DNA of 64,000 nucleotides from an uncultured Methanosarcinales archaeon (GTDB taxonomy: Archaea > Nanobdellota > Nanobdellia > Woesearchaeales > JAGVZT01): positions 28,189 to 92,188 of the forward strand of contig CAYUHF010000003.1 of the NCBI GenBank assembly GCA_964444505.1, read 5' to 3'. The translations under genes were made by a program, and so were the position numbers. Positions 17,677 through 52,959 of the stretch are shown here, one piece after another; the stretch's first letter is position 1, and each line of letters begins with the position of its first letter. The notes under the pieces were generated by a model. That model was not told the DNA's origin. It saw nothing but the letters and a program-made list of their open reading frames with translations, and searched no databases.

Positions 17677-17723
17677 TTTTATTGTCCACCTCAAATGTTA
17701 TAACCATTAAGTGACTACTATCA

Positions 17724-23115: not shown

Positions 23116-23125
23116 ATTAAGACCT

Positions 23126-24280: not shown

Positions 24281-24613
24281 TTTACATACCTCCATTGAAC
24301 ATGTTCTAAAAGTCAAAACAACTTGTTTCTTTATTACTTTAGAGTACTAAACCACTTATATAAATGTTTCGGTTACTTGGAAACCCGAGCTAATAGTCAT
24401 TTGATGCACGACAGTAATTATGCCACCTGTGGATAATTCAGAAATGCTTTTCTTAATTCCTGAACATAGTGACGGGACAGCCCGGGCTTCACCTCGGATT
24501 TTCAAGTCAGCAAATCCGCTTTCTAAAACCAAGAAGTACCCTGCAATTCAGTGTGGGAGCATCAGAAGCATATTTACGTTATTTATTTATACCAAGACAA
24601 TTATACTTTTTTT

Positions 24614-26024: not shown

Positions 26025-26045
26025 ATGCAAACAAGGGGGTATATC

Positions 26046-28721
26046 ATGGCTGACGATGAGATTGCTATTGATTTGAGTAAGATAAAGGACTTTTTTAAAG
26101 GGAAAAAAGATAAAAAACCTAAAGATGATGAGATAGCAATTGATCTCGGACAGATTGGAGATTTCTTCAGCAATCTGAAATTCCAAAAATATCACATACT
26201 TCTTCTAATATTAATTCCAATGCTTGCAGGTGTTTTTTTAAGAGCACAGCCTGCATATCTTCCTATAACTGATGAATGGGCAGAGAGCAGTGTGCATGGT
26301 TTTTACAGAAACAACATACTCCAGGAGATAAACAGGAACTATCCCAACCTGCCGGATTCCAGAAAGCAGGCAATGGTTGAAGAAAACTTCCAAGAACTTC
26401 TGAAGCAGCAGGGAGGACAGATAGAACAGCAAGTCCAGCAGACATCAAACCAGTTCAAAGAGAGAATGCAGGATGACAATGGACAGACTTATCTTCTTGC
26501 ACTTGATCCTTATTTCTGGCTAAGATATGCAGAAAATATTGATGAGAATGGCCATCCTGGTGATACTCTTGTTGATGGAAGACCCTACAGTACATTATTT
26601 TTGGCACCTGTCGGAAGATTTGTTGGACAGGATATTTTCCACCCTTATTTTGAATATTATTTCTATAAGTTGTTGAGTATTTTTGATGGTGATATGTATC
26701 TTATGAAGGCAGCTTTTTATGTGCCCATTATTCTCGCGGCACTGTGTGTTATTCCTGCTTTTTTTATTGCCAAGAAAATTAGCGGCAATATTGGTGGGTT
26801 TTTTGCGGCTATGCTTGTTGCAATCCACCCATCATTTTTGACCAGGACTGCAGGCGGTTTTGCAGATACTGATGCATATAATGTCTTGTTCCCTCTGATG
26901 ATTGCCTGGCTATTTATGGAAGCTTTTGATGCAAGGAAAAAGAAATTCACCATGCTCTTAAGTGCTGGAGCTGGCCTCTTGGTTGGCATATACAGCTTTA
27001 CATGGGGCGGCTGGTGGTATATACTTGACTTTTTGCTTGCTGTTGCTGGACTTTATACTGTATATTATCTTGTGATTCATAGAAATGACCTGAAAAACAG
27101 AAATACTCTTACAAAAATAAAAGATGTCCTCATATTGATTGCTGTGTTTTTTGTTTCTTCAGCCATCTTTACAACAGCATTTAGCAGTTTTGGAAATTTC
27201 AAAAGTATTGTTAGGTCTCCAATTAGTTTCACCCAGATAAAGGATGTTGGTACAAAGAGTATCTGGCCCAATGTGTATACAACTGTTGCTGAACAGAATG
27301 AGATATCAATAAGAGGGGCAATTAACCAGATTGGCGGAACTCTGATGTTTCTCTTGTCTGTTATCGGTATTGGACTTACGCTCAGGAAAAAAGACAAGCA
27401 CGGGAATATTGACCCTAAATACTCAATCCTGCTTGCGGTTTGGTTTGGTGCAACTTTGTACGCAAGCACAAAAGGAGTAAGATGGGTTCTTCTGCTTGTT
27501 CCTGCGTATGCAATTGCATTTGGTGTTTTTGCAGGAATTGCTGTAAAGTATATTGGCAAACAGATGTCAAAAGAACTTAAGATTAGTGAGATGATATCAA
27601 GAGCATCACTGGTACTGATAATTGGGCTTTTACTCATCTCGCCATTTAATGGGGCTCTAAACACTGCAAAAAGAGAGATTCCAAGTATGAATGATGCATG
27701 GGTTAATACACTTACAAAAATCAAAGACAACTCCACAGAAGATGCAATTATTAGCAGCTGGTGGGACTTTGGACACTGGTTCAAGTACTGGGCTGACAGG
27801 GGTGTTACTTTTGATGGAACATCACAGACTGGAGACAGGGCGCATTTTATTGGACTTACTCTTTTAACTGATGATGAAGAGCAGGCAGTTTCTCTTCTAA
27901 GAATGCTTAACTGCGGCGGTAACAATGCATTTGAAACTCTTGATGAGGAAAACCAGGATCCACTTGAATCAGTACAGGTGATAAAACACATAATCATGCT
28001 TGAACAAGATGATGCCAGGGATTATCTTACCGACTATGTAAGCGAAGAGACTGCTGATGAGGTCATACAATACACTCACTGTGATGCACCAAGAGACTAC
28101 TTTATTGCAAGCGAGGATATGGTCGGGAAATCAGGTGTGTGGGCGCACTTTGGTAGCTGGAACTTCACAAGAGCATCAATGGTCTTTGATGTTAGGCAGA
28201 AATCCAGAACAGAAGGAGTACAGATTCTTCAGGAGAAATATGGACTATCTGCCCAGGATGCTGAAACATATTATTATGAGATACGAACACAGGATCCAAA
28301 CAACTGGATTGCACCATGGCCAAGTTATTTTTCACAGACTGCTGCATGCTCAAGAACAAATGAAACAGTGAGATGCAACAATGGACTAATACTAAACCTG
28401 ACCAGTGAAGAAGCTTATGTTGAGACACCACAGGGCAGACAGTATCCAAAAGAGATTTCTTTTGTAAAAAATGATACATTCAGGCACAAGGTTTTTGAAG
28501 AAAACATATGGGTTGGGCAGAACAACCAGGAGATTGGTGCTGCATTCTTCCCGGCAGGAGACTCTTACCAGAGTATAATTATGGCACCGGAGCTTACTGC
28601 AAGTATGTTTACAAGACAGTTCTTTTTCAAAGGAGAGCATCTTGAGTATTTTGAGCCATTCCATCATGAAACTGATCTTACTGGTCTTGATATTTATGTC
28701 TACAAGGTTGACTGGGAATGA
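26046..28721 (+). CDS. aglB: Archaeal oligosaccharyltransferase AglB (STT3 family)
   Basis: The protein has a 13-TM N-terminal half and a WWDFGHW (WWDYG) motif. The start was chosen at the ATG at 26046 after a GGGGGT SD. The N-terminus carries a duplicated DDEIAIDL(x)I(x)DFF motif. Confidence 0.85.
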   Translation: MADDEIAIDLSKIKDFFKGKKDKKPKDDEIAIDLGQIGDFFSNLKFQKYHILLLILIPMLAGVFLRAQPAYLPITDEWAESSVHGFYRNNILQEINRNYPNLPDSRKQAMVEENFQELLKQQGGQIEQQVQQTSNQFKERMQDDNGQTYLLALDPYFWLRYAENIDENGHPGDTLVDGRPYSTLFLAPVGRFVGQDIFHPYFEYYFYKLLSIFDGDMYLMKAAFYVPIILAALCVIPAFFIAKKISGNIGGFFAAMLVAIHPSFLTRTAGGFADTDAYNVLFPLMIAWLFMEAFDARKKKFTMLLSAGAGLLVGIYSFTWGGWWYILDFLLAVAGLYTVYYLVIHRNDLKNRNTLTKIKDVLILIAVFFVSSAIFTTAFSSFGNFKSIVRSPISFTQIKDVGTKSIWPNVYTTVAEQNEISIRGAINQIGGTLMFLLSVIGIGLTLRKKDKHGNIDPKYSILLAVWFGATLYASTKGVRWVLLLVPAYAIAFGVFAGIAVKYIGKQMSKELKISEMISRASLVLIIGLLLISPFNGALNTAKREIPSMNDAWVNTLTKIKDNSTEDAIISSWWDFGHWFKYWADRGVTFDGTSQTGDRAHFIGLTLLTDDEEQAVSLLRMLNCGGNNAFETLDEENQDPLESVQVIKHIIMLEQDDARDYLTDYVSEETADEVIQYTHCDAPRDYFIASEDMVGKSGVWAHFGSWNFTRASMVFDVRQKSRTEGVQILQEKYGLSAQDAETYYYEIRTQDPNNWIAPWPSYFSQTAACSRTNETVRCNNGLILNLTSEEAYVETPQGRQYPKEISFVKNDTFRHKVFEENIWVGQNNQEIGAAFFPAGDSYQSIIMAPELTASMFTRQFFFKGEHLEYFEPFHHETDLTGLDIYVYKVDWE

Positions 28722-29389
28722 AAGTTTTTATTGTTATTCCTGCCTACAATGAAGGCGGGATGATAAAAAATGTTCTAGATGATCTGCATAAACACGGCTA
28801 TGACAATATTGTTGTTGTAGATGACGGGAGTTCTGATGACACTTTCAAGACTGCTTCAAAACATGCAGACACATTAAGACATGTTATTAACAGGGGGCAG
28901 GGCGCAGCTTTACAGACAGGTATTACTTATTCTCTTCAAAAAAGTGCAGACATTATTGTAACGTTTGATGCTGACGGCCAGCACAGGACATCTGAGATTG
29001 AGAAAATGATAAAACCAATAAAAAACGGCGAGGTTGATGTTACTTTTGGTTCAAGGTTTTTGACAAAGTCAGATATTCCTTTCTTAAGAAAAGTCTATCT
29101 AAAGATAGGTGTTGTAGTGATGTTTGTTATGTACGGTGTTGCAATGACAGATTCTCATAACGGTTTTCGTGCTTTTTCAAGAAAAGCTGCACAACAGATT
29201 GATATCAGGTCAGACGGCATGGAGCATGCATCAGAGATTCCAGAGCAGGTCAAAAACAAGAACATTTCATTTAAAGAGGTTCCTGTGCACATAGATTACA
29301 CTGATTATTCACAAAAGCACGGCCAGAATTTCAAGTTAAACGCTTTCAGGATTTTTTTCAGGATGCTATTAAAAAAGCTTATGAGGTGA
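28718..29389 (+). CDS. GT2 polyprenol/dolichyl-phosphate glycosyltransferase (DPM/DPG synthase-like)
   Basis: The motifs are VIPAYNEGGMI, VVVDDGSSDDT and DADGQH. An ATGA overlap joins it to aglB. Confidence 0.8.
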   Translation: MKVFIVIPAYNEGGMIKNVLDDLHKHGYDNIVVVDDGSSDDTFKTASKHADTLRHVINRGQGAALQTGITYSLQKSADIIVTFDADGQHRTSEIEKMIKPIKNGEVDVTFGSRFLTKSDIPFLRKVYLKIGVVVMFVMYGVAMTDSHNGFRAFSRKAAQQIDIRSDGMEHASEIPEQVKNKNISFKEVPVHIDYTDYSQKHGQNFKLNAFRIFFRMLLKKLMR

Positions 29390-29393
29390 CAAT

Positions 29394-29720
29394 ATGGATC
29401 TTATACACATCATTATTTTGGTTGTTGGTTTGTTTGCAGTGAGCAGGGCTTATCTTAGGATGAGAGAATCAAAAATTTCTCTTGGAGAGTTTATTTTCTG
29501 GTTTTTTCTATGGCTTGGGGCAGCAATAATATCTTTTTTCCCCGATATTTTATCATATCTGTCTGACAGGACTGGTTTTGGGAGAGGTATGGATTTTTTG
29601 CTAGCAGTAAGCATCATTGTACTCTTCTATCTGCTCTTCAGACTGTATGTCAAGGTTGATGAGACAAACAAGGAGGTTACAAAGCTTGTCAGGGAAATTG
29701 CAATAATGAAGAAAAAATGA
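29394..29720 (+). CDS. Small 3-TM membrane protein (DUF2304/GtrA-like partner of GT2)
   Basis: The sequence is hydrophobic with 3 predicted helices. It is wedged between GT2 and GT4 with overlaps. Confidence 0.55.
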   Translation: MDLIHIIILVVGLFAVSRAYLRMRESKISLGEFIFWFFLWLGAAIISFFPDILSYLSDRTGFGRGMDFLLAVSIIVLFYLLFRLYVKVDETNKEVTKLVREIAIMKKK

Positions 29721-30802
29721 ATATCCTCTTTATAACAGAATATTTTCCTGAAGATCCTGGAGATATAACAGGGGGTGTTGAGGCGAGAGCTTTTTTTGTT
29801 GCAAAAGAACTTGCCAAAAAACACAGTGTTACTGTTCTTACATCATGCAGAAAAAAACCAAAAAAGTACACTATTGAAAATATAAGAGTTGTGCAGATTG
29901 GGCCTGCATATCCTTATACCCAGAAAGGTCATCTTTTCAAAAGAATGTTGTTTGGTCTTAATTCTGTGTTTTTTTCAAGAAAAATCAAAGCAGATGTTGT
30001 TGAGGGTTGCAGTTTTTTCACTTACCTTTCTTCAATACTTCACCCTGCAGAGTCGTTTATCACTTATCATGAAGTGTGGCTGGGTGAATGGGTGAAAAAC
30101 ACAAACAAGCTTGGTTTTATTGGGGAGATTGCGGAAAGAGCTGTTCTTTTGGGAGCAAAACTTTTCAGGACAAATATAATTGCAGTCTCAAACTTTACCA
30201 AAGATAAGCTTGTGGATGCGGGTGTTTCTGAAAAACAGGTAAGAGTGATTCATAATGGTGTTGATCTTTCAAAATACAATGTCAGGGTAAAAAAGTTTGA
30301 TAAGAAAACAGTGTGCTATGTAGGAAGATTAACAAAGCACAAAAGAGTTCAGGACTTAATAAAAGCGGTTGATGGTCTTGATGTGGAGTGCAAGATTGTT
30401 GGCAAAGGTCAGGAGAAAGAATATCTTGAAAGTATTGCTGGTAGTAATGTAGAGTTTCTTGGATTTCTGCCTTCATATATGGATGTGATTAAGACATTGA
30501 AAAAATCCCATGTTTTCTGTTCTCCAAGTGTTGTAGAGGGTTTTGGGATAACTCTTCTTGAGGCAATGGCCTGCAATGTTCCTTTTGTGTGTTCAGACAT
30601 TGCTCCATTCAGGGAGGTTAGTGATGGAAGGGGCGGGCTTTTTTTCAAGCCAAAAGACCATAAAGAGCTAAGACAAAATATTAAAAGGCTTCTGGAGCAT
30701 GAAAAGTTTTACAAGACATGTGTAGAAGAAGAAAAATTAAGGGTTTCTGAGTTTGACTGGAATATTATTGCAAAGAAAGTTGAGGAGTATTACAAGGATT
30801 AG
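29717..30802 (+). CDS. GT4 family glycosyltransferase
   Basis: The C-terminal EGFGITLLEAMACNVP is an E-x7-E motif. Confidence 0.8.
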   Translation: MNILFITEYFPEDPGDITGGVEARAFFVAKELAKKHSVTVLTSCRKKPKKYTIENIRVVQIGPAYPYTQKGHLFKRMLFGLNSVFFSRKIKADVVEGCSFFTYLSSILHPAESFITYHEVWLGEWVKNTNKLGFIGEIAERAVLLGAKLFRTNIIAVSNFTKDKLVDAGVSEKQVRVIHNGVDLSKYNVRVKKFDKKTVCYVGRLTKHKRVQDLIKAVDGLDVECKIVGKGQEKEYLESIAGSNVEFLGFLPSYMDVIKTLKKSHVFCSPSVVEGFGITLLEAMACNVPFVCSDIAPFREVSDGRGGLFFKPKDHKELRQNIKRLLEHEKFYKTCVEEEKLRVSEFDWNIIAKKVEEYYKD

Positions 30803-31554
30803 TTTTTCTCTGGGAAATGCCTGTGTTTTGTTGGTATTATGTAGCCGTTTATTTCTCCTTTTTTTGCAATAGCCGGGAAAAATTGTCTTTCAAGTGAAGA
30901 GTTGTCAATTTCTGAAAAAACAATTGGCCTCATTATGTATATTCCTGCATTTACTATGTGGGATCCTTTTTCTGCCTTTTCATCAAATTCAATTATCTTG
31001 TCACCTTCCATTACAACAGAGCCATAAAGAGATAATTCACTTGATGTGTTTAGTCCCATTGTCACCCATGCCTCTGACTGCATATGCATCTTTCTCATTT
31101 TTGAAAAATCAAAATGGTTAAATGTATCACCGTTTATCACAACAAATGAAGAGAATATCTTATCCTTCAGAAGTCTTAATGCCTGTGCATTACCTCTGCT
31201 TTCTTTCTCAAATACCCATTCAATATCTAATCCATACTGTTCCAGAAGCTCGCTGACTTTTTTTATTGCTGGTGTTTTTTTGGTGACAACATATATTCTA
31301 CCCACACCGTAATTCTCAAGAAATTCAATCTGTGATACTATAAGTGGTTTCTCTTTAAAATCACTTATCATCAGTTCCTGGTCATTTTCATGTACCAAAA
31401 TCACTGCTGTAGTGAGAGGCTGTTTTTTAAGTCCTTTTGATATGAGCTCTTCAATTGCCTGCGACCTGCTTCTTATAGAAGAACCGTCAATCATCATATC
31501 AACCATTGCCAGAAGAGAAGGATCAACTGAGATTGCAATCTTTTTTTTGTTCAT
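30799..31554 (-). CDS. Ribbon-helix-helix (CopG/NikR-like) domain fused to a degenerate sugar-nucleotidyltransferase-like domain
   Basis: The N-terminus MNKKKIAISVDPSLLAMVDMMIDGSSIRSRSQAIEELI is RHH-like. The C-terminus ...VVINGDTFNHFDFSKMRKMH... resembles NTP_transferase but lacks the GxGTRL motif. Confidence 0.5.
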   Translation of the reverse strand: MNKKKIAISVDPSLLAMVDMMIDGSSIRSRSQAIEELISKGLKKQPLTTAVILVHENDQELMISDFKEKPLIVSQIEFLENYGVGRIYVVTKKTPAIKKVSELLEQYGLDIEWVFEKESRGNAQALRLLKDKIFSSFVVINGDTFNHFDFSKMRKMHMQSEAWVTMGLNTSSELSLYGSVVMEGDKIIEFDEKAEKGSHIVNAGIYIMRPIVFSEIDNSSLERQFFPAIAKKGEINGYIIPTKHRHFPEKN

Positions 31555-31680
31555 GAGTATAATGTGAGAGAGGTATATTATAAGTTTTTTGATATGGTAT
31601 TAACAATGCATACTTTAGAAAATTTTATATATCAGTTTGGTTTGAGTATGAACACTTCATACTGGAGGAGATGATGCATT

Positions 31681-32691
31681 ATGATAATAAAGAGCAGAGC
31701 ACCTGTTAGAATTAGTTATGGTGGTGGAGGTACAGATGTTTCACCGTATACAGAGGATCACGGCGGTGTTGCACTGAATGTAACAATCAACAAATATGTT
31801 TCTGGTTCTCTGGAGCTCTCTCCAGACAACAGGATTATTCTACATTCTTATGACTACAATAAGACTATTTGTCTTGATAATGGTGATGAGCTCAAATATA
31901 ACAATGAACTTGACCTTCTCAAGGCTGTTGTCAAACACAGCCATAAGAGCAAGAAAGGGCTTAAGATGAAGCTTGCAAGTGATGTTCCTCCCAGAAGCGG
32001 TCTTGGCGGGAGTGCGACAGCTTTTGTTGCTGCACTTGGATTGTTTAATCATCTTAAGGATTCAAACAAGTTCACACCTTATGAACTGGCAGAGTTTGCC
32101 TACAAACTGGAGAGAAGAGAACTGAGAATTCCTGGTGGTAGACAAGACCAGTATGCTGCTTCTTTTGGCGGACTTAATTTTATTGAATTCAAAGGAGATG
32201 ATTTTGTGAGAGTCACTCCACTCAACCTAAAGAGAGATTACATGCTTGAGTTAGAGGAGAACACTCTTTTGTTCAGGGTGCCTCCAAGAAAAAAAACAGA
32301 TGACATACTTGCAGACCAGAAGAAAAACCTGAAGACAGGAAAGAGCCTGAGCAGCATGCACAGAAACAAGGAGATTGCATACAAGATGAAAGATGCTCTT
32401 TATGCTGGAGATTTTCAATGTTTTGGAGGGCTTTTACATGAGGCATGGGAGACAAAAAAACAGTTCAGCAGTCTTATATCAAATCCTATGATTGACAAAC
32501 TATACAACACTGCAATAAAGAATGGTGCATTGGGAGGCAAGATAACAGGGGCTGGCGGTGGAGGGCATATGATCTTTTTTTGTGATTCAGACAAGAAAAG
32601 AGATGTTATGAAAAGTCTAACTAAAATGGGTGCAAGACCAGTAAGCTTTAGTTTTAATTTTGAGGGACTTGAAACCTGGGAAGTGAACTAA
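31681..32691 (+). CDS. hddA: GHMP kinase, D-glycero-alpha-D-manno-heptose 7-phosphate kinase-like (HddA)
   Basis: The motifs are PVRISYGGGGTD and PPRSGLGGSATAFVAAL. A GGAGGAG SD is present. The heptose pathway genes are adjacent. Confidence 0.7.
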   Translation: MIIKSRAPVRISYGGGGTDVSPYTEDHGGVALNVTINKYVSGSLELSPDNRIILHSYDYNKTICLDNGDELKYNNELDLLKAVVKHSHKSKKGLKMKLASDVPPRSGLGGSATAFVAALGLFNHLKDSNKFTPYELAEFAYKLERRELRIPGGRQDQYAASFGGLNFIEFKGDDFVRVTPLNLKRDYMLELEENTLLFRVPPRKKTDDILADQKKNLKTGKSLSSMHRNKEIAYKMKDALYAGDFQCFGGLLHEAWETKKQFSSLISNPMIDKLYNTAIKNGALGGKITGAGGGGHMIFFCDSDKKRDVMKSLTKMGARPVSFSFNFEGLETWEVN

Positions 32692-32692
32692 G

Positions 32693-33268
32693 ATGGAAGG
32701 ATATGCCCAGGATATTGCCCAGGAAATAAGAGAAAGCATTCTTGTCAAACAGCAGACCTTAAGACTGTCACCAATTATTGCAAAAGCAGCAGACTCAATA
32801 GTCAAATCTTACAAAAAAGGTGGAAAACTTGTTGTTTTTGGAAATGGCGGGAGTGCTGCAGATGCACAGCACATTGTTGGAGAGCTTGTGAACAAACTTC
32901 ATATGGACAGGGATATGCTAAATGCTCTCGCGCTCAATGTAAACACATCTGTTATTACTGCTATTGGGAATGATTCAAGTTATGATAATATTTTTTCCAG
33001 GCAGATTGAGTTTCTTGTTGATGAAAGAGATGTTGTCATGGGGATAAGCACAAGCGGAAATTCCGAAAATGTAATAAGAGGTCTAAAAAAAGCAAAAGAG
33101 AGGGGTGCACTCACAATTGGTCTTACCGGCAAAACTGGCGGCAGGATGAAAGGACTGCCTGATATAATAGTTAATATTCCTTCTGACAAGGTTACAAGAA
33201 TACAGGAAGCACATATTACTATCGGGCATATTATTTGCGGCCTGGTCGAGAGGGAGCTTTTCCAATGA
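32693..33268 (+). CDS. gmhA: SIS-domain sedoheptulose-7-phosphate isomerase (GmhA)
   Basis: The motifs are VVFGNGGSAADAQH and GISTSGNSENV. Confidence 0.8.
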   Translation: MEGYAQDIAQEIRESILVKQQTLRLSPIIAKAADSIVKSYKKGGKLVVFGNGGSAADAQHIVGELVNKLHMDRDMLNALALNVNTSVITAIGNDSSYDNIFSRQIEFLVDERDVVMGISTSGNSENVIRGLKKAKERGALTIGLTGKTGGRMKGLPDIIVNIPSDKVTRIQEAHITIGHIICGLVERELFQ

Positions 33269-33822
33269 AGGCAGTTTTTCTTGACAGGGATGGTGTGATA
33301 AATTTGCACAAATCAAGGATTGATTCACCTGGAAAGCTTGAGATTTTTGATTTTTCTGCTGATGCCATAAAAAAACTAAGTGATGCAGGCTTTGGTGTGT
33401 ATGTTGTCACTAACCAGCCTGAAGTTGCAAAGGGTTTTTTTAGTCTTGAGGATCTGGAAAAAGTTCACAATTATTTGAAAAAAAAGATTCCTGAGATTGA
33501 TGAGATTTATTTTTGCCCGCACCATCCGGAAAAGGGGTGGCCGGGTGAGGTTCCTGAACTCAAGAAAGAGTGCGAGTGCAGAAAACCAAATCCAGGTCTC
33601 TTGCTGAGAGCTGCAGAAGAGCATGGTATTGACCTTGGTGATTCATGGATGGTAGGAGATTCAATAAGCGATATTGTTGCAGGTAACAGGGCAGGGGTCA
33701 GAACAATCTATGTTACAGAAGGGGGCGGATCTGGAGCAAAACAAGAAGCTAATCTGGAACTTAAACCAGATTACACCTGCAAAAACCTTAAAGATGCTTC
33801 CGAAATAATTAGGAGGGAGTAA
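33265..33822 (+). CDS. gmhB: HAD-family D,D-heptose 1,7-bisphosphate phosphatase (GmhB)
   Basis: The motifs are FLDRDGVIN, VVTNQ and GDSISD, with a Zn-binding CPHHP...CECRKPNPG. The start was trimmed to the ATG at 33265 (ATGA overlap). Confidence 0.8.
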   Translation: MKAVFLDRDGVINLHKSRIDSPGKLEIFDFSADAIKKLSDAGFGVYVVTNQPEVAKGFFSLEDLEKVHNYLKKKIPEIDEIYFCPHHPEKGWPGEVPELKKECECRKPNPGLLLRAAEEHGIDLGDSWMVGDSISDIVAGNRAGVRTIYVTEGGGSGAKQEANLELKPDYTCKNLKDASEIIRRE

Positions 33823-33823
33823 T

Positions 33824-34810
33824 ATGGATTTAATTAATTATGAAAAAGCACTAGAAGAACACAGCAAAGGAACAACTTACTTTATGTGCCAGGCTGCAAG
33901 AATAGAGGCAAAAAAAGATTGGTGGGGCTCCAGGTATCAAGTTGTACTTGCTCATCCATATGAGAATTGCTTTGCTGTCGACAAGGAAGGCAGACAGTAT
34001 ATTGAAAGCCAGAGAAATGATCTTGATTTGATTGACACAAGTAATCATGTTTCATTAGGTTTCCAGAGTATGAAATGCTGGGGAGCTGGAACAGTGATAC
34101 TGCCTAGTTTTCCAGAAAACAGTGTTCTTGTGCAGCTCAAGGTTTATGGTGATGATGCTTATATGTCTCCTTTCACAGGCATAACCGAGAATCCTGAAGA
34201 ACTCTTAAACCCTGAACTTTGTGCTGTAAGGGAGGCAGCAGAAGAACTTGGGGTATGCACTCCAGAGGGGGAGATACTTACACCTGGATTTCACAGACTG
34301 CCATTTTCAAGTATAAATAAAAGATATGACCAAAAAGAGCTTCAGGATATTGTTCAGGAGAGCATGCAGGCAAGTGGTCTTGGATTTGAGAATATGGGCG
34401 GTTATTTGAGTACTTCATTCTACCAAGGTGAAGCCGGAGTAAAAGACCAGCTGGAAATAGTATTTCCTGAGATTGGAGAAAATACTCTTGAAGGAGTTGC
34501 TCTTGCTACAAGCAACCCATCAAATTCAGGAGATGTTCTTATTCCAGTGAATATGGAGCTGCCGCAAGATGCACTTGTCTGGGCAACAGAAGGGAGAAAG
34601 TGGGGAGGTTTTCCTATTATTTTGGGATTTGATCAATTACACAGTCTGCAGAATAGCAAGTGGGGACACGATATTGAGGTTATTGGTTTTGATTCAAGTA
34701 CAGGAAAAAGAACAAAGATGTTGATTCCAGGGTATTGTGATATCTTGCTTCAGAAATGGTTTGGGTGGACAGAGATTAGGACTGATTACAAAGACCATGC
34801 ATCAATCTGA
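33824..34810 (+). CDS. Nudix-box-containing protein (328 aa) embedded in the heptose operon
   Basis: PELCAVREAAEELGV matches the Nudix box REx2EExGU. The remainder of the protein is unassigned. A GGAGGGAG SD is present. Confidence 0.5.
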   Translation: MDLINYEKALEEHSKGTTYFMCQAARIEAKKDWWGSRYQVVLAHPYENCFAVDKEGRQYIESQRNDLDLIDTSNHVSLGFQSMKCWGAGTVILPSFPENSVLVQLKVYGDDAYMSPFTGITENPEELLNPELCAVREAAEELGVCTPEGEILTPGFHRLPFSSINKRYDQKELQDIVQESMQASGLGFENMGGYLSTSFYQGEAGVKDQLEIVFPEIGENTLEGVALATSNPSNSGDVLIPVNMELPQDALVWATEGRKWGGFPIILGFDQLHSLQNSKWGHDIEVIGFDSSTGKRTKMLIPGYCDILLQKWFGWTEIRTDYKDHASI

Positions 34811-34849
34811 TGCAAAACATATAAATAACCTACAGAATGCACTCTTGAT

Positions 34850-35542
34850 ATGAAATCACTGATTATTGCTGGGGGAAAAGGAACACGGATGAAAGATGTT
34901 TCCAAAGAAATCCCAAAGGCACTTCTGCCTGTAAACGGAAAACCTGTTTGTGTGCACCAGATAGATTTCTTAAGAGAGCACGGGATCAAAGATATTGTTT
35001 TTTGCATTGGTCATCTCGGGGACCAGATTGTGGAGTTTATTGGTGATGGGTCTCTTTTTGGTGTAAATGTTTCCTATGCAGAGGAGAAAGAACCTCTTGG
35101 TACTGGTGGGGCAATAAGAAACGGCTATGAATTTGTCAAAGATGAAGAGGATTTTGTTGTCTTGTTTGGAGACATTATGATTGATATGGACCTTTCAGAA
35201 TTTATCGAATTTCACAAACAAAACAAAGCTGTAATCACTTTTGCTGTCCACAAGTCTGATCATCCTGAAGACAGCTCCAATGTCAAGCTTGATAATGGCA
35301 GGATTGTTAGTATTGGAAGACCAAAACACGGCCATCCTATCACTGGTATTACAAGAACCTCAATACAGATCATGAACAAGAGGTGTTTTGATTATATACC
35401 TGAAAGAAAGATTTCATTAGAGGACGAGGTAATACCCAACATGCTTGAGTCAGGCGAGAGGGTTTTTGGTTATTATACCGATGAATTTATCAAGGACATG
35501 GGTACTCCTGAAAGATACAAAAAAGTTGGTGGTGACATATGA
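34850..35542 (+). CDS. hddC: D-glycero-alpha-D-manno-heptose 1-phosphate guanylyltransferase-like nucleotidyltransferase (HddC)
   Basis: The motifs are MKSLIIAGGKGTRM (GxGTRM) and GDIMID. Confidence 0.75.
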   Translation: MKSLIIAGGKGTRMKDVSKEIPKALLPVNGKPVCVHQIDFLREHGIKDIVFCIGHLGDQIVEFIGDGSLFGVNVSYAEEKEPLGTGGAIRNGYEFVKDEEDFVVLFGDIMIDMDLSEFIEFHKQNKAVITFAVHKSDHPEDSSNVKLDNGRIVSIGRPKHGHPITGITRTSIQIMNKRCFDYIPERKISLEDEVIPNMLESGERVFGYYTDEFIKDMGTPERYKKVGGDI

Positions 35543-36624
35543 GAGTAGCAATTCTTCATGATTATTTCAATAAAATGGGCGGCGGGGAAAGGGTTGTTCT
35601 TGGGATGGCTAAAGCGTTTGATGCTGATATATATACTGGGTTTGTCAACCATGAGAATACTTATGAAAGTATAAAAGATTACAATGTAAAAGAGATAGCC
35701 AGGGATATTGGGATTGGAGGGATTAGAAATATCCATCTTATGAACAGGTTTTCCAAGCTTGAGCTTGATTATGATTTTTTTATTTTTTCAGGAAACATGT
35801 GCATTTCTGCTGTTGAGAAAAACAAGCCAAGTCTGCTTTACTGCCACACACCTCCAAGATTCATGTATGACTTACGTGAATGGTTTATGAAAAACTCCAA
35901 CTTTTTCCAGAGGGTTTTTCTGGAGCTTTTGACAATGTATATGAAGCCAAAAGACCAGCATTACATGAGACAGTTTGACAGGATTGTGGTCAATTCCAAA
36001 AATGTCCAGCAGAGACTCTTAAAATACTATGGAAAAGATGTTTATGACAAAGATGAAGTTGTATACTCAATGATTGACCAGAGCAAGTTCACTTACAAGA
36101 AAACAGGAGATTTTTTCCTCTCTTTTGGCAGGTTAGACAAACTCAAAAGAGTTGATGTTATTGTCAGGGCTTTCCAGAAAATGCCTGAGAAAAAACTGGT
36201 TGTTGTTTCTGGGGGGCCAGAACTTGAAAACATAAAAGAGATGGCAAAAGATTATGCTAATATTGAGGTTTTGGGTTATGTTAGTGACCAAAAGCTGTTT
36301 AATCTTGTCGGCACGTGTCTTGCAACAATATACATCCCAGTTAATGAGGATATGGGTCTTACTCCGCTTGAGAGCAACTCAGCAGGAAAACCATGCATAG
36401 GTGCAAATGAGGGTGGTCCTACAGAGCTCATAAAGCACAATAAGACTGGCTGGTTGATTGAGCCTGATGAAAAGAGTTTGATTGAGACTGTCCAAAAAAT
36501 AACACCTGAAAAAGTAAATAACATGCGAAAGGATTGTGAAGAGTGGGCTGACAATTTTAGTGAGGACAAGTTTATTGCAAGGATAAGAAAAGTCATGGAC
36601 AGCATGGGCATTGACAACTCATAA
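35539..36624 (+). CDS. GT4 family glycosyltransferase
   Basis: EDMGLTPLESNSAGKPCI is an E-x7-E motif. An ATGA overlap joins it to hddC. Confidence 0.75.
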   Translation: MRVAILHDYFNKMGGGERVVLGMAKAFDADIYTGFVNHENTYESIKDYNVKEIARDIGIGGIRNIHLMNRFSKLELDYDFFIFSGNMCISAVEKNKPSLLYCHTPPRFMYDLREWFMKNSNFFQRVFLELLTMYMKPKDQHYMRQFDRIVVNSKNVQQRLLKYYGKDVYDKDEVVYSMIDQSKFTYKKTGDFFLSFGRLDKLKRVDVIVRAFQKMPEKKLVVVSGGPELENIKEMAKDYANIEVLGYVSDQKLFNLVGTCLATIYIPVNEDMGLTPLESNSAGKPCIGANEGGPTELIKHNKTGWLIEPDEKSLIETVQKITPEKVNNMRKDCEEWADNFSEDKFIARIRKVMDSMGIDNS

Positions 36625-36850: not shown

Positions 36851-38296
36851 ATGAAAGTATACCGGAGGATTGCAAACCAAATCAGCATAACATTTTTCTT
36901 TCAAGTTTTAACTTTCTTTACAGGGCCCTTACTTTTATTTATTTTGACACGAAATCTCTCCACAGAATCTTATGGAGCTTATTCAATTTTCTCTTCTACA
37001 ACACATTTTCTCTCCGTATTTCTATCTCTTGGCTTGTATAGTTACATAATCACTAAGTTTTCAGGTTTCTCTTATAAAGAGAGAGCTGAAGAGACTGGAA
37101 GTATTTCACTATTCTTAGTTTTCTACTTCATTGTATTATTTGTTGTTTTTCTACTCATAAAACATAAGTTTCTATCAATATTTAATCTGATAAATTATGG
37201 ATCAGAATACAACATCATAATAGTTTTGATAATAGTGGGGATCTTGAGACGTATATTAATCGGCCGCCTAACATCAAAAAAACTACTGGAATTGACTTCG
37301 ATACTTCAATTCTTGAGAAATTCTGGATGGGTTTACGGCCTTTTTTTAGTTATGATTTTCACTACAATTAATTTGAAGATAGTTTTAGGAATGTGGCTAC
37401 TAATGGTTATACTGACAACAATTATTGCTTTGCCAAAAATAAATATCAGATTTTGCAAGCGATTTCCGAAAAAAGCTCTGCTTTTCGGTTCTCCACTTAT
37501 GTTATACCACATCGGTTATTGGCTTATAAGAGTGGCTGACAGATATGTTCTCTCTTATTACCTGACCCTAGAGAGAGTTGGCATTTATAGCCTGGGTGAC
37601 TCGCTAGTAACGGCTCTGGTCATGTTTTCCGATGTAATAAGTGGTGTAATATATCCTTACTATTCTGAGAGCTTTAACAAAAAGAAGAAACACAAAGTTT
37701 TCAGTAATGTAGCAATCAAATACACACTTTTGATACTCCTTCCCGCAATTGCAGGTTTAACTGTGATGGGAAAGGCCATCATCACAATGGTTTCCGGTCC
37801 GCGATATCTGGAGTCTGCTTCTGTGATTCCCTGGCTGGCACTCTACCCACTTTTAGTCGGTCTTTCAAAAGTATTCTATCAGAATTTGATGGTGAGAGAC
37901 AAGACCAAACAGGCAGGAATGATTTTCTTCTCTGCAGGGATATTAAATATTCTCCTCAACATGTTGATGGTTCCCAAAATAGGCATAATAGGTGCCGCCA
38001 TTTCCATCAATGTTTCCTATCTTCTCATATTTTGTTCAACCTTCTATCTTTCAAAGGGCTGGAAAGTTGACTGGAGGTTTGTTAGACCATTGCGTATCAT
38101 GGGTGCAACTGCTATAATGAGTATTGTTGTGTACCTTATCCAACCACAAAGACTACTAACCAAAATATCGACTGTAATAGTAGGTGGTTTACTTTACTTT
38201 GTAGCTCTTCTGATTCTAGATGCAATAAGCAAAGAGGAACTAAAGTTTTTTAAGGAGCTCCTCACTACAATAGGTAAGAAATATAAAATAGTGTAG
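36851..38296 (+). CDS. Wzx-like polysaccharide/oligosaccharide flippase (MOP superfamily)
   Basis: A 481-aa protein with ~12-14 hydrophobic helices, sitting in a glycan cluster. Confidence 0.65.
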   Translation: MKVYRRIANQISITFFFQVLTFFTGPLLLFILTRNLSTESYGAYSIFSSTTHFLSVFLSLGLYSYIITKFSGFSYKERAEETGSISLFLVFYFIVLFVVFLLIKHKFLSIFNLINYGSEYNIIIVLIIVGILRRILIGRLTSKKLLELTSILQFLRNSGWVYGLFLVMIFTTINLKIVLGMWLLMVILTTIIALPKINIRFCKRFPKKALLFGSPLMLYHIGYWLIRVADRYVLSYYLTLERVGIYSLGDSLVTALVMFSDVISGVIYPYYSESFNKKKKHKVFSNVAIKYTLLILLPAIAGLTVMGKAIITMVSGPRYLESASVIPWLALYPLLVGLSKVFYQNLMVRDKTKQAGMIFFSAGILNILLNMLMVPKIGIIGAAISINVSYLLIFCSTFYLSKGWKVDWRFVRPLRIMGATAIMSIVVYLIQPQRLLTKISTVIVGGLLYFVALLILDAISKEELKFFKELLTTIGKKYKIV

Positions 38297-38320: not shown

Positions 38321-39277
38321 ATGAGGACATTGGTAACTGGAGGTGCAGGGTTTATTGGTTTTCATGTGTCAAAAGGGCTTCTAAAAAGAGGTGAGGAAGT
38401 AACAATTATTGATAATTTTAATCAATATTATGATCAAAAACTAAAGATAGACAGGATTAAGCAATTGAAAACTAATAAACTGGAAGTAATCAAAGAAGAC
38501 ATAAGTGATTTTGACGCATTATTTCGAAAGATAAAAGATAAGAGAATAGACAAAATCTGCCACTTAGCAGCCCAAGCTGGAGTAAGATACTCCATAGAGA
38601 ACCCTTTTATATATGAAAAGACAAATGTTAGGGGAACTCTAAATATTTTTGAATGTGCCAGAAGACTAGACATAAATAAGGTAGTTTTTGCTTCAAGTAG
38701 TTCTGTTTACGGTAACCACTCACAAACCCCGTATAATGAAGAACAAAAGGTTAACCAGCCTGAGTCAATATATGCAGCTACAAAAATAAGTAACGAAACA
38801 ATGGCTTACACATATCACAGAATACACGATATTCAAGTGGTTGGGCTCCGTCTTTTCACTGTATATGGACCGTGGGGAAGACCAGACATGGCAATGCATT
38901 TATTTACGGACAAAATCATGAATGGCCATCCCATAGATCTTTTTAATCATGGAGATCTAAAGAGAGATTTCACATTTGTATCAGATATAAGAGAAGGACT
39001 TTTGTCAGCCTTGGATAAAAACTTAGGTTTCGAGATAATTAACCTGGGATGTGGAGAACCGGTCGAACTTAGATATTTTGTGAAATGCATCGAAAAGAGT
39101 ACCAATAAGAAAGCCAAGATAAGATTACTACCAATGCAGAAAGGAGACGTATATGAAACTTTTGCAGATATAAAGAAAGCAAAAAGTCTTCTGAATTATG
39201 AACCCCAAGTAAGCATTGAGGAAGGTGTATCCTATTTTGTGGAGTGGTTCAAAAAATATTATGAAATCAAAAAATGA
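38321..39277 (+). CDS. NAD-dependent nucleotide-sugar epimerase/dehydratase (SDR; UDP-glucuronate/UDP-GlcNAc 4-epimerase-like)
   Basis: The motifs are TGGAGFIGFH and YAATK (YxxxK). Confidence 0.8.
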   Translation: MRTLVTGGAGFIGFHVSKGLLKRGEEVTIIDNFNQYYDQKLKIDRIKQLKTNKLEVIKEDISDFDALFRKIKDKRIDKICHLAAQAGVRYSIENPFIYEKTNVRGTLNIFECARRLDINKVVFASSSSVYGNHSQTPYNEEQKVNQPESIYAATKISNETMAYTYHRIHDIQVVGLRLFTVYGPWGRPDMAMHLFTDKIMNGHPIDLFNHGDLKRDFTFVSDIREGLLSALDKNLGFEIINLGCGEPVELRYFVKCIEKSTNKKAKIRLLPMQKGDVYETFADIKKAKSLLNYEPQVSIEEGVSYFVEWFKKYYEIKK

Positions 39278-40503
39278 AAATTGCGATAACATCTACTTTT
39301 TTGGGACAAAAAACTTCGGGAGCAGAGATTAGTACTTATCATCTTTGCAAAAATCTAAGCCAAAAAAACCAAGTCTTTGCAATAACAACTAAAATGGATA
39401 AAAAGCTTCCCTTTAAATGTTTTAGTCTGAAACTTGGTTTTGTTCCCAATATAGTATTGATGATTGGAATTTGGCCAACAGATTACCTAATGTATAAAAA
39501 AATACTGAAAATTTTTAGACGAGAAAAACCAGACTTAGTGCATATACAAGATTTTTCAATACTGGAACCAAGCTTAAGAGCAGCCAAAGAGCTCGAGATA
39601 CCAACGGTATTGACTGTCCGGGACTACAGATTCCATTGCAACTTATCTATTGATCTAGAACAGAACCGAATAGAAAGAGAGTATTCCAACAAAACCTATT
39701 ATAAATGGCTTTACAAAACCCTAAAAGAAACTAAAGGTCTGGGTTTTATGACTCCAGTATTCTATCCAATATTTAAAATTTCAAATGAAAAAAACATCAA
39801 GAATGTAAAACTAGTCGATAAAATAATAACTGTATCAGACTTTGTGAAAAAAGAACTGATTAAAAGTGGGATTTGCAGGGAAAAAATACAAACAATAAAT
39901 GTTCCAAAGCCAGACTGGAATTATAAAAAACCAATTAATAAGAATAAAATGACATTTTTCGCAGCTGGAGTCTTTACAAAGTCTAAAGGATTTGGTTACC
40001 TGATTGAATCCTTCATCAAAGCTTTGGAGGATAATGACGAAATCGAATTAAGAATAGCTGGAGATGGATCCCACAGAAAATCAGTAAAGAAAAAAATCAC
40101 AAAAAACCAAAAAAACATCAAATTGATAGGCCGAATAAGGCCTGAAGACATGAGAGGAGAATACGAAAAGGCAGATGTTGTGGTAGTTCCTTCTCTTTGG
40201 CCAGAACCATTAAGTAGAATAATATTTGAAAGCTTTTCTGTAGGTAGACCTGTGATAGCAACAAAAACTGGAGGAAGCCCAGAACTAGTCAAAGACAATG
40301 AAACAGGATTTTTGGTTGGACCCCAAAATATTAATGAAATGAGAGATGCAATAGAGAAATTTATCCACACTCCAGACCTTGCTGAAAAACTAGGATTAAA
40401 AGCAAATAATATTATAAATAACAGAGCAAACCCAGGAAGAGTAATTAAAGAACACATGAAGGTATATAAAAGGATGCAAAATGAAAAGTCTAGACAAGGA
40501 TAA
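39274..40503 (+). CDS. GT4 family glycosyltransferase
   Basis: EPLSRIIFESFSVGRPVIAT is an E-x7-E motif. Confidence 0.75.
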   Translation: MKIAITSTFLGQKTSGAEISTYHLCKNLSQKNQVFAITTKMDKKLPFKCFSLKLGFVPNIVLMIGIWPTDYLMYKKILKIFRREKPDLVHIQDFSILEPSLRAAKELEIPTVLTVRDYRFHCNLSIDLEQNRIEREYSNKTYYKWLYKTLKETKGLGFMTPVFYPIFKISNEKNIKNVKLVDKIITVSDFVKKELIKSGICREKIQTINVPKPDWNYKKPINKNKMTFFAAGVFTKSKGFGYLIESFIKALEDNDEIELRIAGDGSHRKSVKKKITKNQKNIKLIGRIRPEDMRGEYEKADVVVVPSLWPEPLSRIIFESFSVGRPVIATKTGGSPELVKDNETGFLVGPQNINEMRDAIEKFIHTPDLAEKLGLKANNIINNRANPGRVIKEHMKVYKRMQNEKSRQG

Positions 40504-41113
40504 AAAGATATTAACCCTGTGTGCAAACAAGAAAGTTCTACATTTGGGAGCTACAGATAGTCCCCACCATATAGAGAAAGCGGAAAACAGAGAGTTACTT
40601 CATCAAAAACTCCAGAGAGTAGCAGAAAAGCTGATAGGCATAGACTTGGATCAGAGATCAATTAGAGAATTACAGAGATATGGAATCACAAATATATATA
40701 AGCATGACATTACAAAAAAATTCCCAGATGAGTTTTCTAATTTTGACATTATTATTATGGGGGATGTATTTGAGCATTTATCCAACCCAGGTCTTGCCAT
40801 CGAGAATGTTAAGAAAATTATGACCGATAAAACAAAACTAATCATAACAGTTCCAAATATTTATTGCTACTTTAATATTTTTAACATTTTTACCAAAAAA
40901 GAAGATGTGCATTCAGATCACATGTTCTGGACATCAAAACAGACTATGACGCAGTTTTTAAATAGACACAAATTGGAGATAGTAAATTTTGAGTATCTAA
41001 ATTTTGGATCGTATGATGATATAAAAACAATAAAGGGAAAAATATTCTATAATGTATTTCTTAAATCTATTGCTAAGATAAGAAGTGTTTTATTCTTCGA
41101 ATTAAAAAAATAA
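40481..41113 (+). CDS. Class I SAM-dependent methyltransferase
   Basis: The motifs are VLHLGATDS and DIIIMGDVFEHL. Confidence 0.6.
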   Translation: MKSLDKDKKILTLCANKKVLHLGATDSPHHIEKAENRELLHQKLQRVAEKLIGIDLDQRSIRELQRYGITNIYKHDITKKFPDEFSNFDIIIMGDVFEHLSNPGLAIENVKKIMTDKTKLIITVPNIYCYFNIFNIFTKKEDVHSDHMFWTSKQTMTQFLNRHKLEIVNFEYLNFGSYDDIKTIKGKIFYNVFLKSIAKIRSVLFFELKK

Positions 41114-41242
41114 TTCTCAAATAAGCTAAATATACTGGAAATCAGAAGTATCTACAATTACAGAATGAAAAAACACATTTTTCAAAATCAAAAGAGAAAC
41201 CTTTCAAAAACTTTAAAAGATGTCATCTATTTAATTATTTAA

Positions 41243-42985: not shown

Positions 42986-43117
42986 AAGGTTTCATTTATA
43001 AAGATTGTTAATTTCTTTTCCTCGGCTCATTTCAATTCAAAATAATGTAAAGAGCACTTGTGGAAAGGAATACAAAAAACTCTAAAGTCCGAAAAATCGG
43101 CTGGTTCTATGAGACTG

Positions 43118-45540: not shown

Positions 45541-45618
45541 TAAAATTCATAAGTCTTTTTGGCATATTATGTGATGCAGTAAAAAGATATTTAAACCAAT
45601 ATGCATTGGAAATTCAAA

Positions 45619-46566: not shown

Positions 46567-46598
46567 ACTATTTATACTATTGTTAATCTAACTCTGAT

Positions 46599-52876: not shown

Positions 52877-52959
52877 GAATCTGTAAAAACAGGCTCGGTT
52901 ATATAAACCTTATGTGTATTTCCGATTGATTTATTAATACCAGTAAAACAAACTTAAAT

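Follow-up and report, generated by a model that had tools for sequence, protein, structure and literature searches.

Which sugar is activated beside the oligosaccharyltransferase of a woesearchaeal archaeon, and what are the additional genes packed around that pathway doing there? The question is raised by positions 31681-35542 of a 64,000-nucleotide stretch of DNA (hereafter, the window) from contig CAYUHF010000003.1 of assembly GCA_964444505.1 (contig positions 28,189 to 92,188, forward strand), deposited for an uncultured Methanosarcinales archaeon and placed by GTDB among the Woesearchaeales. In an initial annotation, this segment was described as an operon of hddA, gmhA, gmhB, and hddC, together encoding a route to guanosine diphosphate (GDP)-heptose, with a gene for a 328-amino-acid (aa) Nudix protein inserted and with an AglB glycosylation locus around it. 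To our knowledge, N-glycosylation in DPANN archaea is essentially uncharacterized. Our overall reading, which we hold to be probable, is that the segment serves as the sugar-activating module within an archaeal N-glycosylation locus that is conserved in the lineage and occupies about 24.5-42 kb of the window. Judging from the encoded proteins, the operon very probably specifies a heptose pathway, and we are similarly confident that a heptose module of the adenosine diphosphate (ADP)-beta type has been swapped for one of the alpha type at a conserved AglB locus. The genes of the operon are as follows.

31681-32691, plus strand: hddA, D-glycero-D-manno-heptose-7-phosphate 1-kinase (GHMP family, forming the alpha anomer), predicted from NCBIfam and PDB matches and motifs
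32693-33268, plus strand: gmhA, predicted sedoheptulose-7-phosphate isomerase (SIS domain; NCBIfam 188 bits, PDB GmhA structures 141-176 bits)
33265-33822, plus strand: gmhB, predicted heptose-1,7-bisphosphate 7-phosphatase (HAD-IIIA with zinc loop; NCBIfam GmhB 152 bits); the open reading frame (ORF) opens at TTG 33235
33824-34810, plus strand: gene for the 328-aa protein, whose family is very rare and keeps RE-x-x-EE (Nudix-box-like) without exception, recognized by similarity, its integration into the operon, and a relative encoded near an HddC-CBS-HddA fusion
34850-35542, plus strand: hddC-like gene for a putative sugar-1-phosphate nucleotidyltransferase (Pfam NTP_transferase 101 bits; NCBIfam and PDB matches; operon linkage)

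An ORF check returned these five plus-strand frames at the coordinates first given for them. HddA is 336 aa, GmhA is 191 aa, and the HddC-like protein is 230 aa. The gmhB frame gives 195 aa from the TTG and 185 aa from ATG 33265, which overlaps the gmhA stop codon as ATGA and is also the start called on an independent contig; it is the likely start. Packing is tight throughout, with a 1-nucleotide (nt) gap between hddA and gmhA, a 4-nt overlap between gmhA and gmhB, a 1-nt gap between gmhB and the 328-aa gene, a 39-nt gap between the latter and hddC, and a 4-nt overlap between hddC and the next glycosyltransferase gene. With the GHMP kinase, SIS, HAD, and NTP_transferase domains of Pfam all present and STT3/AglB encoded about 3 kb upstream, the observation of a tightly packed operon of these genes at an AglB locus is confirmed. 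Scans for sigma-70 promoters and intrinsic terminators returned sites no more often than in shuffled sequence, none of them convincing within the operon. The 64-kb window contains no rRNA or tRNA genes; synteny and the source names of the closest RHH-family (see below) and HddA homologs support the DPANN/Woesearchaeota placement.

The first three enzymes are well supported by sequence. HddA matches the NCBIfam HddA model over its full length at 281 bits (next family, 88 bits), and its best solved matches by far are the heptokinases 4n3o, 3k85, and WcbL; heptokinases as a group reach 211-231 bits, against 70 bits for a fucokinase and 58 bits for a galactokinase. It therefore does not group with the galacto-type kinases, the heptose kinases standing at 231 bits versus at most 70 bits for galacto- and fucokinases. 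The GHMP N- and C-terminal domains score 59 and 51 bits in Pfam, with GGGTD at residue 15 and PPRSGLGGSA at residue 103. The comparison of HddA with HldE that had been proposed would set proteins of unrelated folds side by side. GmhA carries Pfam SIS_2 (94 bits) and the motifs GNGGS, STSGNS, and QEAH, and phosphoheptose isomerase structures match it at up to 176 bits versus 118 bits for the paralog DiaA, so it is not a SIS protein unrelated to GmhA. GmhB passes the NCBIfam cutoffs for HAD-IIIA (96 versus 44.6 bits) and for the histidinol-phosphatase domain (127 versus 84 bits), matches Escherichia coli GmhB at 107 bits, and has both the DRDGV signature and a zinc loop, C-x-H-x17-C-x-C, starting at C84; the beta-type model fits it better than the alpha-type one (152 versus 102 bits). 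Counting against these assignments, all three proteins fall below their NCBIfam equivalog cutoffs: HddA with 281 versus 600 bits, GmhA with 188 versus 276 and 176 versus 209 bits, and GmhB with 152 versus 178 bits. Such shortfalls are expected for a deep archaeal lineage, and the HddA model appears to have been trained narrowly on bacterial sequences, the fusion protein of locus L012 (below) likewise reaching just 268 bits. GHMP-type heptose kinases give the alpha anomer and PfkB-type kinases the beta anomer; the operon is of the alpha type. Known four-enzyme HddA/HddC operons of this type hold the same enzyme families in one operon, their GHMP-type kinase fixing the alpha anomer. Unlike them, the present operon belongs to a DPANN archaeon, lies inside an AglB locus, has a nucleotidyltransferase too divergent to be called GDP-specific, and is accompanied by an extra 328-aa gene between gmhB and hddC, a divergent gene of ribbon-helix-helix (RHH) type, and a palindrome.

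The position of the operon becomes informative when the genes to its left are compared with those of relatives, which are cited here by locus label: L004 and L007 are alpha-type loci of archaeal metagenome-assembled genomes (MAGs), L012 is the locus of the fusion protein, and L014-L019 are six sampled loci of the RHH family, chosen as family members on long contigs. The left part of the locus comprises the following genes.

24551-25654, plus strand: FAD-dependent reductase, geranylgeranyl-reductase-like, at the left edge of the conserved locus (Pfam FAD_binding_3; 41-42% identity to its positional counterparts in L014 and L018)
26025-28721, plus strand: AglB/STT3 oligosaccharyltransferase (Pfam STT3 159 bits; WWDFG at residue 579; 40-47% full-length identity to STT3 of L014-L018)
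28718-29389, plus strand: polyprenyl-phosphate glycosyltransferase of family 2 (GT2), PpgS/AglJ-like (NCBIfam PpgS 196 bits, AglJ 116 bits; syntenic, 32-36% identity)
29394-29720, plus strand: small DUF2304 membrane protein (Pfam DUF2304 94 bits; syntenic in L014-L018, 25-33% identity)
29717-30802, plus strand: glycosyltransferase of family 4 (GT4; Pfam Glycos_transf_1 and Glyco_transf_4), in the slot of the heptosyltransferase of family 9 (GT9) of relatives
30799-31554, minus strand: putative RHH domain followed by a nucleotidyltransferase-like domain without the GGxGTR loop (Pfam RHH_1, below threshold, and NTP_transferase), divergent from hddA

The AglB protein also matches the STT3-PglB core domain of Pfam (33 bits), and it stands far below the cutoffs of both the archaeal and the PglB models of NCBIfam. 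All six sampled loci have the frame of the window, in which the FAD reductase, AglB, GT2, DUF2304, glycosyltransferase, and RHH genes are followed by a divergent heptose operon; STT3 was within range in five of the six. Between the window and L014-L018, identity is 42-50% for the RHH protein, 43% for GmhA, and 33-38% for the orthologous GmhB proteins. The operon of the relatives is of the ADP-beta-heptose type, the route of bacterial lipopolysaccharide, with HldA (379 bits, above cutoff), HldC (181 bits), and HldD (268 bits) in addition to GmhB, and its glycosyltransferase, at the position of the window's GT4 gene at 29717-30802, is a GT9 enzyme matching the heptosyltransferase II model at 113 bits. 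No homolog of HldA, HldC, in-operon HldD, GT9, or a small cupin protein (see below) is present in the 64-kb window. The ADP-beta-heptose route thus occupies the same chromosomal position in 6/6 relatives and shares orthologous GmhA and GmhB with the window, whereas the PfkB kinase HldA has given way to a GHMP kinase, the cytidylyltransferase-fold HldC to an NTP_transferase-fold HddC-like enzyme, and GT9 to GT4, with loss of the in-operon 6-epimerase.

In this DPANN lineage, AglB is normally accompanied by a heptose operon, and the alpha-type replacement is the unusual feature. The initial statement that heptose is uncommon for archaea therefore holds generally, where one characterized N-glycan, that of Thermoplasma, contains it (PMC11407970), and fails here, where every sampled relative has a heptose operon. 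The Thermoplasma acidophilum N-linked glycan, whose heptose is covered in a review (PMC11407970), is a precedent from a different phylum and is likened to the present locus by the presence of heptose alone. Heptose beside AglB as a lineage norm agrees both with that glycan and with functional beta-heptose enzymes in archaea, reported by Tang et al. 2024 according to the summary in PMC11461863. The GT4 gene at 29717-30802 has a 42%-identical ortholog directly upstream of hddC-hddA-gmhA-gmhB in L004 and is our first candidate for an alpha-heptosyltransferase, the hddC-coupled GT4 at 35539-36624 being the second. By the mechanism rules of CAZy, GT9 enzymes invert a beta-linked donor and GT4 enzymes retain an alpha-linked one. 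A beta donor with GT9 and an alpha donor with GT4 would both lead to an alpha-heptoside, a sameness of product that would account for the transferase having changed together with the pathway.

Some features of the relatives bear on the same operons. Of the six beta-type loci, four begin the operon with a gene for a Cupin_2 protein of 117-136 aa (L014 6507-6875, L015 5679-6032, L017 7320-7700, and L018 7457-7867, all on the minus strand) with faint matches to mannose-6-phosphate and lyxose isomerases; in L016, as in the window, a SIS-type GmhA is found instead. Possibly, the cupin protein is a sedoheptulose-7-phosphate isomerase that is not orthologous to GmhA. The heptose locus seems to be visited by mobile elements: a LAGLIDADG homing-endonuclease-like ORF lies between the cupin and RHH genes of L015 (6019-6849, minus strand), and an intein-containing protein of more than 2360 aa flanks the heptose operon of L016 (1-3641, minus strand).

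What remained in place through the exchange includes the RHH gene and, in the 126-nt region that divides it from hddA, a short palindrome. The order in this region is TTTATATA, the palindrome, a GGAGGAG ribosome-binding site, and the ATG of hddA.

31624-31631, plus strand: TTTATATA, putative archaeal TATA-box-like element upstream of hddA (sequence)
31646-31662, no strand: perfect palindrome GTATGAA-cac-TTCATAC, candidate operator (sequence, conservation)
L014 6886-6902, L015 6886-6902, L016 6891-6907, L017 7714-7730, L018 7880-7896, L019 7896-7912: the palindrome in relatives, at a conserved promoter-proximal position

GTATGAA-N3-TTCATAC occurs once in the 64-kb window, where 0.05 copies are expected, and exactly once in each of the six sampled relatives, where it separates a TATA-like box (a TTTATA/TTTAAA element stands at the equivalent place in L014-L019) from the heptose operon, whose first gene begins shortly after it. 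It precedes the alpha-type operon of the window and the beta-type operons of the relatives alike; because the site has been kept although identity between the flanking proteins has fallen to 40-50% and the pathways differ, we regard it as a probable functional operator. AAGTATGA half-sites lie near the start of the RHH gene itself, which is the divergent neighbor of the heptose operon in 6/6 sampled loci (at about 7001-8760, plus strand, in L014-L019). The RHH family comprises at least 236 clusters of proteins of about 250 aa, with source names almost only those of Candidatus Woesearchaeota and Nanoarchaeota MAGs. Its N-terminal 45 residues are its best-conserved part. In the window protein, this part scores 19.0 bits on Pfam RHH_1 (threshold 20.5 bits, E = 0.0014) and weakly matches NikR models, and the NTP_transferase alignment begins at profile position 30; the GGxGTR nucleotide-binding loop is absent from 14/14 aligned family members, and the sugar-binding half of the fold is kept.

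NikR is an RHH regulator with a C-terminal ligand-binding domain. The window protein resembles it in having a predicted N-terminal RHH part followed by a sensor-like domain, in being encoded divergently from its presumptive target, and in the overlap of the palindrome with the promoter; it differs in that the putative sensor has the fold of a sugar nucleotidyltransferase lacking GGxGTR. We consider it fairly likely, from sequence and conservation, that the RHH protein is the operator-binding regulator of the heptose operon, and a heptose metabolite is the likely ligand of this pseudo-enzyme. A point on the other side is L007, which has no copy of the palindrome above chance and whose RHH homolog is more divergent. 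No description of such an RHH-pseudo-nucleotidyltransferase regulator was found in the searchable literature.

The 328-aa gene is a genuine member of the operon. In GC content (0.410), GC content at third codon positions (GC3, 0.325), and codon-usage divergence (0.114), it cannot be told apart from hddA, gmhA, gmhB, and hddC, and its ATG, 1 nt past the gmhB stop codon, is preceded by the Shine-Dalgarno-like GGAGGGAG. A contig assembled independently in Logan is 100% identical over window positions 32962-35033, which include both junctions of the gene; because this contig comes from a separately assembled read set, an assembly or binning artifact is excluded as the reason for its position. A word-indexed search of 5.8 billion clustered proteins returned only the protein itself, and a family profile found nothing further. 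An exhaustive HMMER search of 1.84 billion representative proteins returned three true relatives of 296-333 aa; a further match, P0002, was rejected as spurious, because this repetitive, adhesin-like protein of 2519 aa matched on composition. No additional members came from profile scans of genome and viral contigs or from two such scans of metagenome contigs, and the family has no NCBIfam match. Identity among the four members is 22-33%, and 28 alignment columns are invariant, among them F-x-G, a proline, and R136, E137, E140, and E141 of the REAAEELGV stretch at residues 136-144.

That stretch is the reason the protein had been called a Nudix protein, and several weak matches point the same way. 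Pfam NUDIX aligns to residues 129-172 (19.0 bits, E = 0.0015). In the PDB, the family profile finds the MutT/Nudix protein 1sjy (E = 2, 55 columns), a relaxed alignment placing a strand, K106, F-x-G, and the helix in canonical order, and the sole annotated weak match in PHROG is MutT/NUDIX (E = 0.28), over the same residues. Alignment with hhalign to five Nudix exemplars, which Pfam scores as Nudix domains at 44-92 bits, gave P = 0.0024, and its score of 28.1 was reached by none of 300 column shuffles (mean 12.3, maximum 21.0). All four matches cover residues of about 90-170 in the same register.

The position between gmhB and hddC and the REAAEELGV motif of the earlier description were thus borne out, while the Nudix assignment itself has much to contend with. 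The Pfam score is below the gathering score of 21.1 bits, and NUDIX has no match at E <= 1 in the other three of the four family members. The box, in full G-x5-E-x7-R-E-U-x-E-E-x-G-U, is incomplete: its G-x5-E-x7 half is missing (G-x5-E-x7-RE finds no match), the conserved glycine lies 17 rather than 14 residues before the arginine, and position -8 is leucine; the three relatives keep RE-x-x-EE and lack the final glycine. The hhalign probability is low (12%), with 23 confident columns, a single-sequence PDB search with the core segment found no Nudix protein, and AlphaFold models are unusable (predicted local distance difference test score of 32 for the sequence alone and 35 with the four-sequence alignment). 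Weighing both sides, a Nudix fold seems reasonably likely, and by analogy with Nudix enzymes the invariant R-E-x-x-E-E on its predicted helix would most likely bind a divalent metal.

The main alternative, that the protein has another or new fold with an acidic helix motif and modifies heptose or nucleoside diphosphate (NDP)-heptose as an epimerase, mutase, or transferase, or is a noncatalytic partner of HddA/HddC, draws on these same shortfalls, Pfam NUDIX being subthreshold and matching one member in four and the confident profile alignment covering just 23 columns. It also draws on the length of the protein (328 aa, versus about 130 aa for a Nudix domain) and on conserved residues beyond the motif that match nothing, namely, G56-R57, W280-G281, D306, Q310, and R319-D321-Y322. 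Genomic context can be read in its favor as well: the gene of the relative P0004 is flanked in L012 by two sugar-modifying genes of the short-chain dehydrogenase/reductase (SDR) family. We nevertheless find this alternative rather unlikely, as Nudix is the sole annotated weak match in four independent libraries and always in one register, no shuffle reaches the profile score, R-E-x-x-E-E is invariant at 22-33% identity, and the upstream strand, K106, and F-x-G fall in canonical order. Context is also the strongest clue to function: P0004, the one relative on a long contig, is encoded two genes from the HddC-CBS-HddA fusion, in a cluster with genes for a flippase, a glycosyltransferase, an aminotransferase, and a sugar isomerase, and we take this small family to accompany HddA/HddC-type enzymes. 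On the short contigs of the two other relatives, the neighboring genes encode an inositol-monophosphatase-family protein and a carbamoyltransferase.

If the fold is that of Nudix proteins, hydrolysis of an NDP-sugar is a possibility that we raise tentatively. Gmm (NudD, WcaH) is a GDP-mannose mannosyl hydrolase encoded among the GDP-sugar genes for E. coli colanic acid, has a noncanonical Nudix box, and is considered a regulator of the donor pool. As the closest known analogy, it underlies our proposal of a metal-dependent NDP-heptose hydrolase: both genes lie among sugar-nucleotide genes for surface glycans, the present one next to a nucleotidyltransferase gene, and both have an atypical box. 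The likeness has limits, as no sequence relationship is detectable beyond the box helix, and the archaeal protein has twice the length of Gmm and retains the two glutamates of EE. The earlier suggestion that the protein makes heptose-1-phosphate from ADP-heptose is unsupported, the window lacking HldA, HldC, and GT9. A further difficulty for a pathway role is that the gene is missing from the alpha-type loci L004 and L007, and because their operons do without it we regard it as accessory and dispensable for the pathway.

The next alternative concerns where the heptose goes. AglB adjacency suggests an N-glycan and is no proof of one, and heptose could instead be built into a lipid-linked surface polysaccharide or lipoglycan, with AglB next to it as part of a general envelope-glycan island. 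Bacterial GT9 enzymes build lipopolysaccharide (LPS) cores, and the island runs on for over 20 kb, encoding many further GT4 and GT2 enzymes, methyltransferases, a PMT_2-type protein, an Agl23-like protein, and a B12-binding radical-SAM enzyme, which exceeds the needs of one short N-glycan. Against this, the order AglB-GT2-DUF2304-glycosyltransferase-RHH-heptose operon is kept in 5/6 relatives at 40-50% protein identity, and a heptose-containing archaeal N-glycan is documented (PMC11407970). We judge the polysaccharide destination unlikely and retain the AglB-linked glycan as the preferred one.

Less probable again is that the HddC-like enzyme is a hexose-1-phosphate enzyme, such as a GDP-mannose pyrophosphorylase, serving another sugar of the glycan, with heptose-1-phosphate activated otherwise or never. 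Taken alone, the sequence of this protein, which has a GKGTR loop at residue 9, is ambiguous. Its NCBIfam ranking is led by mannose-1-phosphate guanylyltransferase (154 bits), followed by MurU (122 bits), archaeal GlmU (113 bits), and, in fourth place, HddC (107 bits, versus an equivalog cutoff of 300), and its best PDB match is a UTP-glucose-1-phosphate uridylyltransferase (104 bits), ahead of Yersinia HddC (98 bits); these rankings speak for a hexose substrate and against an HddC function. Genomic context speaks for HddC. The protein is 34-36% identical to the operon-linked HddC proteins of L004, L007, and L012, and the L004 and L007 orthologs, which belong to four-gene sets (GT4-hddC-hddA-gmhA-gmhB in L004 and hddA-SDR-gmhA-gmhB-hddC in L007), have HddC as their best model, with 164 and 147 bits. 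In L012, a 677-aa protein (4908-6941, minus strand) fuses an HddC-like nucleotidyltransferase, CBS domains, and an HddA-like GHMP kinase, the two enzyme domains being 36% and 38% identical to the window's HddC-like and HddA proteins, respectively. The enzyme is, moreover, the sole nucleotidyltransferase of the operon, and with a hexose substrate the three upstream enzymes would yield a dead-end sugar phosphate. We therefore think a hexose-1-phosphate enzyme very unlikely and keep the HddC assignment, which holds through the operon context in L004 and L007 and the fusion in L012. The grouping with mannose-pathway enzymes that, according to the initial annotation, would refute its reading is thus left ambiguous by scores (154 versus 107 bits) and countered by context. 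The claimed GDP-heptose route stands as far as HddA, GmhA, GmhB, and operon linkage carry it, and its nucleotide is less secure, given that ranking; judged from sequence, GDP is only slightly favored.

Further observations attach to these relatives. No gmhA or gmhB lies within 8 kb of the L012 fusion, which may act on a different sugar or on a heptose supplied by genes at another site of the genome. The L007 (archaeal MAG ARS1178) gene between hddA and gmhA (7017-7952, plus strand) encodes an SDR that matches GDP-mannose 4,6-dehydratase best (154 bits, below cutoff) and thereby lends indirect support to GTP as the nucleotide substrate, and a B12-binding radical-SAM gene (4535-6004, plus strand) lies directly upstream of the alpha-type operon there; together they hint at a 6-deoxy or otherwise modified GDP-heptose.

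That the 328-aa ORF is spurious or decaying, a recent foreign insertion, or an assembly artifact can be set aside as extremely improbable: the absence of close homologs among 5.8 billion proteins and of the gene from other alpha-type archaeal operons would fit, whereas three full-length relatives with 28 invariant positions, composition and codon usage equal to those of its operon neighbors (which rule out a recent insertion), the Shine-Dalgarno-like GGAGGGAG with its 1-nt junction, and an independent contig identical over both junctions (which rules out a chimera) do not.

With the heptose reading thus retained, the pathway would run as follows. GmhA would convert sedoheptulose-7-phosphate to D-glycero-D-manno-heptose-7-phosphate, HddA would phosphorylate it at C1 to the alpha-1,7-bisphosphate, and GmhB would remove the 7-phosphate. 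After activation, a retaining GT4 (29717-30802 or 35539-36624) would transfer heptose to a dolichol-linked glycan, which would be flipped and then passed to protein by AglB. Kinase, nucleotidyltransferase, and transferase have been exchanged together in this genome. The cotranscribed 328-aa protein would act as a pyrophosphatase on NDP-heptose (or another NDP-sugar), trimming, regulating, or editing the pool of activated sugar, and the divergent RHH-pseudo-nucleotidyltransferase would probably control the operon through the palindrome at 31646-31662. The sequences themselves establish gene identities, synteny, the exchange of modules, and the conservation of both the family motif and the palindrome; in this scheme, we infer the use of GDP, the transferase assignment, the N-glycan destination, the hydrolase activity, and the regulation. 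A difficulty is the supply of substrate, as nothing within the 64 kb points to a source of sedoheptulose-7-phosphate. A more ambitious version, which we regard as doubtful, combines two novelties: the 328-aa protein would found a very divergent Nudix-type family that regulates or proofreads the pool of HddA/HddC-made NDP-heptoses, or would be a new heptose-modification enzyme, and a regulator made of an RHH domain and a dead nucleotidyltransferase would sense a heptose metabolite, bind GTATGAA-N3-TTCATAC, and have been kept through the swap from ADP-beta to alpha type.

To the right of the operon, the glycan island begins with three genes.

35539-36624, plus strand: GT4 glycosyltransferase, translationally coupled to hddC by an ATGA overlap (Pfam; junction)
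36851-38296, plus strand: Wzx/Polysacc_synt-type flippase (Pfam Polysacc_synt_3 and Polysacc_synt)
38321-39277, plus strand: SDR-family NDP-sugar epimerase/dehydratase (Pfam; NCBIfam galE 178 bits, LegB 163 bits, and heptose 6-epimerase 131 bits, all below cutoff)

The island continues at 39274-56141, about 17 kb past the operon, with more GT4 and GT2 genes, three methyltransferase genes, a gene for the PMT_2-type membrane protein, a second SDR gene, the B12-binding radical-SAM gene (47489-48913), and the gene for the Agl23-like protein (48891-50546). GC content falls to 30-33% around 40-44 kb of the window, a stretch that may be a variable, exchanged part of the island. Directly upstream of the glycosylation island lie two very large minus-strand ORFs, 13420-17694 (1424 aa) and 17917-23280 (1787 aa); their products could be surface or S-layer-type proteins and substrates of glycosylation.

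Heptose is better known from bacterial LPS cores and S-layers, and DPANN cells depend on surface contact with their hosts. Our comparison suggests that Woesearchaeota-type archaea routinely incorporate heptose into the glycan linked to AglB. It also indicates that kinase, nucleotidyltransferase, and glycosyltransferase can be replaced as a unit, changing the donor chemistry, with the isomerase, phosphatase, putative regulator gene, and putative operator left in place, which makes the locus a clean natural example of non-orthologous module displacement. The pathway itself is of a known kind; the locus is set apart by its accessory protein family, by the concerted swap, and by a conserved pair of putative regulator and operator, and none of the three was found described in the searchable literature. 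Testable candidates follow for the enzyme that transfers heptose in archaea, for a regulator through which glycosylation would respond to a metabolite, and for a new family of accessory enzymes associated with HddA/HddC. Because NDP-heptoses also act as innate-immune agonists (PMC11461863), knowing which archaea make which heptose anomer is of wider relevance.

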